From: a virus
DNA length: 64,000 nucleotides
Reading direction: 5' to 3' (one strand)
IMG/VR virus record: IMGVR_UViG_3300049033_000018
Span: 93,141-157,140 of that record
Shown here piece by piece: positions 50,334 to 50,606 of this stretch. The notes under the pieces are model-generated. The model made no database searches and had not been told where the DNA came from. It saw only the letters and a program-made list of their open reading frames with translations. The position numbers and the translations under genes are program-made. Each line of letters opens with the position of its first letter. Position 1 is the first letter of the stretch.

Positions 50334-50459
50334 TCAAGCTACAGGTCTTGTTAACTGATACTCCACACCAAGTGCCCCAGTCAAGGCTAGAGGAATCGAA
50401 CCTCATTTGCTTTTTTCCAAATAAAAATGTTTTAACTTTGTATTTGCTGTATGTAGCTT
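50334..50459 (-). ncRNA. Y-RNA-like array unit 5 (ASL + T arm + short permuted acceptor)
   Basis: Stem AAGCTACA/TGTAGCTT, TACAGCAAA, GAGG-TTCGATT-CCTC. Confidence 0.7.
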
Positions 50460-50461
50460 TA

Positions 50462-50523
50462 TCAAATTACTTTTGTTTTTTCAAATACCAATTTTGATTT
50501 TTTTAGTTTGCTGTAAGTAATTT
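50462..50523 (-). ncRNA. Y-RNA-like array unit 4 (anticodon-like stem-loop UGG only)
   Basis: Stem AAATTACT/AGTAATTT, TACAGCAAA, TCAAA-ATTGGTA-TTTGA. Confidence 0.7.
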
Positions 50524-50525
50524 TA

Positions 50526-50606
50526 TCAGAATAGTTTTAGGAATTGAACCTTATTAATCGTTTATGAGACAATTTTTTAACCAAATTTCTTTGCTGTTAC
50601 TATTCT
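50526..50606 (-). ncRNA. Y-RNA-like array unit 3 (CAU anticodon arm + T loop)
   Basis: Stem AGAATAGT/ACTATTCT, AACAGCAAA, ATTGT-CTCATAA-ACGAT, AGG-TTCAATT-CCT. Confidence 0.72.

Follow-up and report, generated by a model that had tools for sequence, protein, structure and literature searches.

The window analysed here, a 64-kb stretch of DNA (G+C 31.7%) that forms the end of a 157-kb virus record, contains an array of five minus-strand units between the gene for a 561-aa protein and a tRNA-Glu gene. Comparison of this array with its homologs supports selection on the display of anticodon loops, in both their shape and their sequence. The array is linked to the neighbouring gene, whose product is modelled with a Ro60-like fold, and is preceded by a promoter motif. 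We infer that the array RNAs are transcribed, processed and bound by this protein, and that they may serve as decoys.

The host is almost certainly a Bacteroidota species, since the genome has 30 sites matching the Bacteroidota promoter consensus compared to 5 expected, and a Shine-Dalgarno-like motif precedes only 5 of 102 long ORFs. The phage carries 23 tRNA genes and a tRNA-repair set (Pnk, RlaP, an RNA ligase and a CCA-adding-type enzyme), with the repair genes 22-37 kb distant from the array. An amber-suppressor-type tRNA (CUA; 49900-49971, minus strand) is kept in loci L001, L002, L296 and L297; despite this tRNA, TAG recoding is not evident, as TAG terminates 8 of the 102 long ORFs.

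Every unit in the array follows one grammar, opening with an 8-nt arm, two bases and CAGCAA; the cargo comes next, followed by a strand complementary to the arm and by GA. The paired arms form an 8-bp clamp that, together with the motif ACAGCAA, makes up the handle, while the cargo varies between units. The unit pattern also matches at two other sites in the genome, both within or close to coding DNA and probably due to chance. The array starts 77 nt behind the gene, and directly upstream of unit 1 is a Bacteroidota-type promoter (50934-50965, minus strand) composed of TTTG, a 20-nt spacer and TANNTTTG, which is conserved ahead of the array in close relatives. An 11-bp inverted repeat (50926-50976, minus strand), also kept in close relatives, encloses this promoter and is possibly an operator, or a hairpin that also terminates transcription of the upstream gene. 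At the other end, tRNA-Glu(UUC) (50257-50329, minus strand; found by ARAGORN and Rfam) lies 6 nt behind unit 5, and the same order of array and then tRNA-Glu is seen in L001, L002, L296 and L297; maturation of the tRNA-Glu 5′-end could free the 3′-end of the array. Homologous genes are accompanied by units in the same orientation, with 437 units on the strand of the gene and 36 on the opposite strand at 187 loci, and 171 and 2, respectively, at 210 loci of a distant subfamily. A locus can hold up to about nine units.

The neighbouring 561-aa DUF7788/DUF2828 protein (50996-52681, minus strand) matches a single Pfam family, PF25043 (DUF7788, E = 2.6e-10), and PHROG 850, annotated as an RNA-binding protein. 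No TROVE Pfam match was obtained, and a PDB sequence search gave no match below E 0.5. The AlphaFold2 model (pTM 0.83) predicts a Ro60-like toroid in which a vWA domain closes the ring of helical repeats. The best 12 Foldseek matches are all Ro60/TROVE, and the VIA structure comparison aligns 423 residues of the model with 1yvr (Z 15.9, rmsd 4.5). All ten of the best VIA matches are Ro60 chains (Z 13.3-15.9, ∼420 residues aligned), and the next fold scores Z 8.9. In the MIDAS motif of the vWA domain, the DxSxS residues D358, S360 and S362, together with T429 and D460, are invariant among 66 homologs. The protein is presumed to bind the RNA handle, based on the linkage of gene and array and on Ro60 biology.

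The gene is considered phage-borne, as a homolog was found in 2 of the 401 Bacteroidota genomes searched, the seed genome being one of the two. A single apparently chromosomal Bacteroidota homolog (L825; G170:C1:3778991-3780541) lies on a large contig. Cultured carriers include phage Lbo-JY46 and Felixounavirus, Bacillus, Enterococcus and Synechococcus phages. Lbo-JY46 (L433, PP438436) is recorded from a cyanobacterium, and its 47%-identical protein and four units have the junction grammar of Bacteroidota phages; it offers a ready experimental system, but the assignment of its host deserves a check. The Felixounavirus homolog (27% identity) has a handle unit and is encoded just upstream of a tRNA cluster, the position occupied by gp130. 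Activity against the Ppl defence has been described for one Felixounavirus Ro60-like protein, gp130 of Bas63 (PMC11482910). We infer from its position and fold that gp130 is a member of the same family.

The five units, all on the minus strand, differ in how much of a tRNA they recall. Unit 1 (50763-50919) consists of the clamp, the handle motif and a 133-nt cargo in which no tRNA part was recognised. Unit 2 (50611-50753) holds, within its clamp and behind ACAGCAA, a YrlA-like, circularly permuted tRNA-like cargo with a T arm, an acceptor-like stem and a D arm; it scores 35.5 bits (E = 1e-5) against Rfam YrlA (RF02553), below the gathering score of 69, and units 3-5 have no match to this family. 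None of the five was found as a tRNA by ARAGORN or the Rfam tRNA model, and all are without a cloverleaf and CCA end. Elsewhere, complete ARAGORN-positive tRNAs sit inside some handles (Leu-AAG, L002:5254-5380; Tyr-GUA, L009:2945-3100), showing that full tRNAs can be cargo. A further class of cargo (L005:5885, L135:5638, L209:3247, L224:4921 and L433:4304) combines an anticodon hairpin, a long GC-rich GGTGG hairpin and a T arm, and looks like a tRNA with a long variable arm.

Unit 3 (50528-50606) is, to judge from its sequence, a tRNA mimic in which the clamp takes the place of the acceptor stem. A sequence-only reading of this DNA had described a D-loop remnant, an anticodon hairpin and a T loop, and all three are where it placed them: the D-loop remnant with its GG at 50578-50584, the CAU anticodon stem-loop at 50557-50573 and the T arm at 50539-50551. 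The hairpin has five base pairs (ATTGT/ACGAT, including one G-U) and the loop CTCATAA, with a pyrimidine at position 32 (Y32), U33 and a purine at position 37 (R37). This loop is indeed identical to that of the three CAU tRNAs in the window, but it is also found in 9 of 13 host CAU tRNAs and is therefore not phage-specific. Orthologs in L001, L295 and L297 keep the stem, a CTnnnAA loop frame, the D-loop GG and the T arm, with compensatory changes in the T arm and, in one ortholog, a full D arm. The anticodon across unit 3 and these orthologs reads CAU, CAU, AAU or ACA. The same design with CAU recurs in the distant L624, and L227 and L282 have elbow-only units of D-loop GG and T arm. We rejected unit 3 as a mimic of tRNA-fMet, since it lacks three consecutive G-C pairs (host fMet stems are TCGGG/CCCGA, compared to ATTGT/ACGAT). 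The tRNA-fMet-cleaving VapC suggested earlier as a target is thus a poor test of this unit, given the missing G-C triplet, and the differing ortholog anticodons also speak against it. Candidates for an fMet-specific VapC would instead be the permuted cargos at L002:4955, L296:5971 and L302:6017, in which CAU is followed by CCC and a distal GGG strand; these look like tRNA-fMet opened at the anticodon loop.

Unit 4 (50464-50523) is minimal, with the clamp and a single 5-bp/7-nt hairpin (50481-50497). The hairpin is present as first described, with five Watson-Crick pairs, the loop ATTGGTA, U33 and UGG; its geometry departs from that of a canonical anticodon stem-loop, failing both Y32 and R37. 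The A32 and U37 found in their place occur in 5 and 4 of 224 phage tRNAs, respectively. Relatives of unit 4 with the same type of stem have loops ending in GGT, the host tRNA-Gln loop among them. In many relatives, GGT or TGG is kept as loop size ranges over 5-8 nt and the register shifts.

Unit 5 (50336-50459) combines the clamp, a U5/A5 hairpin (50411-50427), a T arm (50390-50404) and a pseudoknot. The hairpin, its loop ATTTGGA, the T arm and the GCCTT/GGGGC stem of the earlier reading were all recovered, with conservation limited to the outer three pairs of that stem. These three pairs form S1 (GCC/GGC, 50385-50387 with 50374-50376) of a predicted covarying H-type pseudoknot (50354-50387) that the earlier reading overlooked, in which a 5-bp S2 pairs 50377-50381 with 50354-50358 and a conserved GG-rich third loop spans 50359-50373. 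The S2 positions pair in 76 of 80 cells, with 16 distinct variants and several double changes, compared to 24-27 cells when the strands are slid by 1-3 nt. Among unit 5 and 16 relatives, the outer pair of S1 is G-C in 12 and A-T in 5, and a partner-shuffle control gave 45 ± 3 pairs compared to the observed 68 of 75. Pairs were counted on motif-anchored segments, as MAFFT misaligned the 3′ strand. In one of the alignments, the row for L057 came from the wrong strand and was disregarded. Pattern scans of viral contigs were made three times; two gave mostly chance matches, and the last contributed a single known pseudoknot locus.

The anticodon of unit 5 had been given as UUG, or UGG in a shifted register. 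UUG is the better reading, as Bacteroidota tRNA-Gln loops (TTTTGGT, CTTTGGA and similar) carry G37 and the phage's own tRNA-Gln loop, CTTTGAC, does not match. In this register the loop has U33 and G37 and resembles that of host tRNA-Gln save for A32, failing only Y32. The anticodon is not fixed, since some orthologs shift register. Placement of an anticodon-like hairpin, a T arm and then a 3-bp plus 5-bp pseudoknot, in this order, is shared with the tRNA-like structures of TYMV-type plant viruses, which have a pseudoknotted acceptor arm. Unlike these, unit 5 has no 3′ CCA, its third loop is long and conserved, and the clamp closes it; the likeness is topological only.

The sequence-only reading proposed selection on anticodon display and expected homologous units to be enriched in 5-bp/7-nt U33 hairpins over shuffled controls. 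We compared units around homologous genes, after removal of near-duplicates and of the window itself, with dinucleotide shuffles, counting 5-bp hairpins by loop length; T-loops, likewise 5-bp/7-nt hairpins and with U as their second base, were left out of every such test. U33-R37 hairpins are present in 46 of 137 homologous short cargos compared to 3.9 ± 1.9 expected (shuffle maximum 9), although related phages are not independent and such counts overstate the number of events. Stricter Y32-U33-R37 hairpins number 38 compared to 2.4 expected. In the 137 cargos, loop lengths of 4, 6, 8, 9, 10 and 11 are at chance, and length 5 is raised (14 compared to 4.5), as expected where the closing bases of 7-nt loops can pair. 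The distant subfamily has U33-R37 hairpins in 23 of 84 cargos compared to 2.1 ± 1.4, essentially at loop length 7 only. The expected excess thus appears in two independent sets of homologous arrays. About two thirds of short cargos are without a canonical anticodon hairpin, and where one is present it mostly lies 6-15 nt behind the handle motif. Base-shuffled cargos of units 3, 4 and 5 produce a U33 5-bp/7-nt hairpin with a chance of 8%, 0.4% and 3%, respectively. The real support is comparative, since single units fold no better than shuffles (z -0.4 to -1.3).

The identity of the loops points in the same direction. Exact host tRNA loops account for 25 of 74 seven-nt loops compared to 0.8 with the loop letters shuffled, in a comparison set of four Bacteroidota genomes and ∼132 tRNAs whose loop sets are incomplete, and exact phage tRNA loops account for 19 of 74 compared to 1.0. 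TTTTGGT, displayed four times, and CTCTTAA are seen only in the host set and not in the phage set. A Thr loop and a Lys loop each occur on five different stems. The enrichment in two separate subfamilies and the turnover of stems around fixed loops support selection on anticodon-loop display. The accompanying idea that the rest of the tRNA scaffold decays did not survive, as the D-loop GG, T arm and pseudoknot are conserved or covarying. The commonest displayed anticodons are UUU, UUG, UGU and GUU, while 17 of 85 are absent from the four sampled host tRNA sets. Diversity of anticodons within one array is not above chance (2 repeats compared to 3.5, P 0.3). An apparent exclusion of C36 anticodons (Val, Ala, Asp, Glu and Gly), 0 of 85 in the first set, was discarded when the distant set gave 4 of 33, including Gly-UCC loops, and the gap is treated as lineage-limited or chance.

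The closest known counterpart is Ro60/Rsr with its Y RNAs (YrlA, YrlB and Yrn1; RF02553; Chen et al., 2014, PMC4201824; Yrl1/2 of phage phiLo, PMC12135203). Both systems pair a ring of helical repeats and a vWA/MIDAS domain with small RNAs encoded beside its gene, on the same strand and within 4 kb, the RNAs of the array being predicted to come from one precursor. In both, a stem joins the ends of the RNAs, a conserved motif lies close to its 5′ strand, and the cargo is tRNA-like, permuted in unit 2. The 561-aa protein, of a DUF2828/DUF7788 branch, is however only 9-13% identical to Ro60 structures, and the handle is ACAGCAA rather than GNCGAAN0-1G or GGUCCGA, and a single locus can have about nine units. 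The Y RNAs described so far are without a true 7-nt anticodon loop, whereas the array family displays many. By analogy, the array and protein would work like Ro60 with Y RNAs; the array lies outside YrlA, as neither form of the Ro-binding motif has a match in the array and the scores are below threshold.

A second likeness is to the Class I RNAs of dictyostelid social amoebae (RF01414; Kjellin et al., 2021, PMC7919456), which have a short variable terminal stem, an 11-nt motif ending in ACAGCAA by the 5′ strand, a variable interior, an AAG start and a CUGU end. Unit 4 aligns with the whole of the Rfam Dicty_Class_I_RNA model and scores 28.3 bits (E = 0.008), where the gathering threshold is 41.5. 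Unlike the array, Class I RNAs are eukaryotic, singly promoted and tied to development, have an RRM protein partner, and are reported neither to display anticodons nor to have a Ro-like partner. The upstream element of the array is a bacterial promoter and not the DUSE that marks Class I RNAs. Our literature search, largely confined to open-access papers, found no published description of the array/protein system.

We propose, with a confidence that stops a little short of even, that the cargos are decoys or competitive inhibitors against tRNA-attacking host defences. The array would be transcribed from the host-type promoter and then cut into small RNAs, and the Ro60-like ring protein of the phage would bind each of these at its constant handle and stabilise it. 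The cargos would mimic parts of tRNA, namely the anticodon stem-loop only (unit 4), the anticodon loop and elbow (unit 3), the anticodon loop with T arm and pseudoknot (unit 5), or a permuted tRNA (unit 2). They may thereby occupy or inhibit host enzymes that attack tRNA, such as anticodon nucleases and effectors of a similar kind, so that the tRNAs of both host and phage are spared, in parallel with the tRNAs and repair enzymes that the phage itself encodes. The role loosely matches the displayed anticodon spectrum: targets of PARIS AriB overlap the commonest displayed anticodons, and Cas13a has a U-rich preference and also cuts non-tRNA loops that resemble anticodon loops. We place the decoy proposal first because of this overlap, the phage-borne gene and the anti-Ppl precedent of Felixounavirus gp130.

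tRNA cleavage is a common anti-phage output, which phages are known to answer with spare or resistant tRNAs and with repair enzymes; if the decoy proposal is true, carrier-bound anticodon mimics would be a further strategy. Other phage RNAs are known to neutralise a defence protein by mimicking a host RNA, including the pseudo-ToxI repeats of phage phiTE and solitary CRISPR-repeat anti-CRISPR RNAs, which are small and partly tandem. These differ from the array in that they mimic an antitoxin or crRNA rather than an enzyme substrate and have no dedicated carrier protein. As with the tRNAs by which phage T5 escapes or outcompetes the tRNA-cutting defences PARIS, retron Eco7 and Septu, a phage RNA with tRNA features would face tRNA-targeting immunity, and competitive inhibition of AriB has been raised as a possibility (PMC12409363; PMC13728456). 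The T5-type tRNAs are full, translating tRNAs, whereas array units have no CCA acceptor end and cannot replace a tRNA. Several points nevertheless weigh against decoys. In the absence of partner RNAs, gp130 still rescues T7 on Ppl (PMC11482910), so this anti-defence effect does not depend on the cargos. Many cargos are without an anticodon loop, some being elbow-only (L227 and L282), and ortholog anticodons change, some to forms absent from hosts, in arrays no more diverse than chance. A+T-rich DNA itself favours U-rich anticodons, and a cleavable decoy would be consumed, making pure competition costly.

A broader form of the decoy proposal, held more tentatively still, is that phages use one protein-bound handle to present a modular set of interchangeable tRNA-part decoys (anticodon loops, elbows, and permuted and pseudoknotted tRNA shapes), and that this set neutralises host immunity directed at tRNA. 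In that case the displayed anticodons would report the tRNAs attacked by the defences of each host lineage, and the handle would link phage RNAs with the Class I RNAs of social amoebae. The system bears on the roles of phage Ro60-like proteins and on the reason for tRNA mimicry by Y RNAs, and it is directly testable, as cultured carrier phages exist and tRNA-cutting defences have been cloned in E. coli.

Gating, tethering or repair linked to the Ro60-like ring explains the anatomy about as well. As a full account this is less likely than not, though nearly as good as the decoy proposal: the units would be Y-RNA-like gates, tethers or sensors in tRNA repair or quality control, with cargos recruiting tRNA-handling enzymes (ligase, kinase, exonuclease or modifying enzymes) to the ring, or with loop cleavage opening the ring and signalling an attack on tRNA. 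Known Y RNAs tether Ro60 to PNPase, gate its cavity and mimic tRNA (PMC4201824), and in phage phiLo the binding partners of Ro60 are host PNPase and two Y-like RNAs (PMC12135203). The phage of the window carries a complete set of repair genes, and the many types of cargo, elbow-only and permuted ones included, suit adaptors better than pure anticodon bait. An adaptor, however, has no obvious need for many different host-identical anticodon loops, and the repair genes are 22-37 kb away.

Sequestration of host translation factors is a less probable role, in which the loops would titrate anticodon-modifying enzymes, synthetases or ribosomal sites and tilt translation to the phage. Most displayed loops are of the U36-A37, A36-A37 or G36-G37 type, on which position-37 modification usually acts, and isolated stem-loops are minimal substrates of several anticodon-modifying enzymes. 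Absence of C36 anticodons would also point to position-37 modification, but the gap of the first set was not replicated in the distant set, and the phage's own tRNAs depend on the same enzymes. More doubtful again is a capture role, in which the UGG-containing loops of unit 4 and unit 5 would base-pair with the 3′ CCA ends of tRNAs, in the manner of T-box antiterminators or RNase P RNA, and would bring tRNAs that are uncharged or damaged to the ring. The GGT or TGG kept through shifts of register in the 5-8-nt loops of many unit 4 relatives would fit such pairing, as would the breach of the purine-37 rule by unit 4; against it, the dominant form is the 7-nt loop TTTTGGT, identical to that of host tRNA-Gln, and most displayed loops are without GG. 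It is barely credible that the units are neutral leftovers of tRNA genes, or hairpins that A+T-rich DNA forms by chance: weak stems, folding energies of single units no better than those of shuffles and the position within a tRNA cluster would suit this reading, but at the family level it is refuted by twelve-fold enrichment at loop length 7 in two sets, by identical loops on mutually unrelated stems and by covariation of clamp, T arm and pseudoknot.

Other elements of the window also have tRNA or vWA features. A tRNA-like gene (24828-24935, minus strand; Rfam 45.6 bits) lies among the RNA-repair genes and has an insert of ∼40 nt with two small hairpins in place of the anticodon loop; it is without the handle motif. 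A short degenerate tRNA-like element (50098-50161, minus strand; 31.5 bits, missed by ARAGORN) retains a D arm and T arm with a reduced anticodon arm, and a similar element follows tRNA-Glu in L001. A second vWA-domain protein (12951-13811, minus strand) is encoded next to the polynucleotide kinase gene. Around the locus itself, Pth2-like, YAcAr/SLOG, YqeY and CYTH genes (49243-49557 and 52963-54188, minus strand) are syntenic in close relatives and add to its tRNA-maintenance setting.
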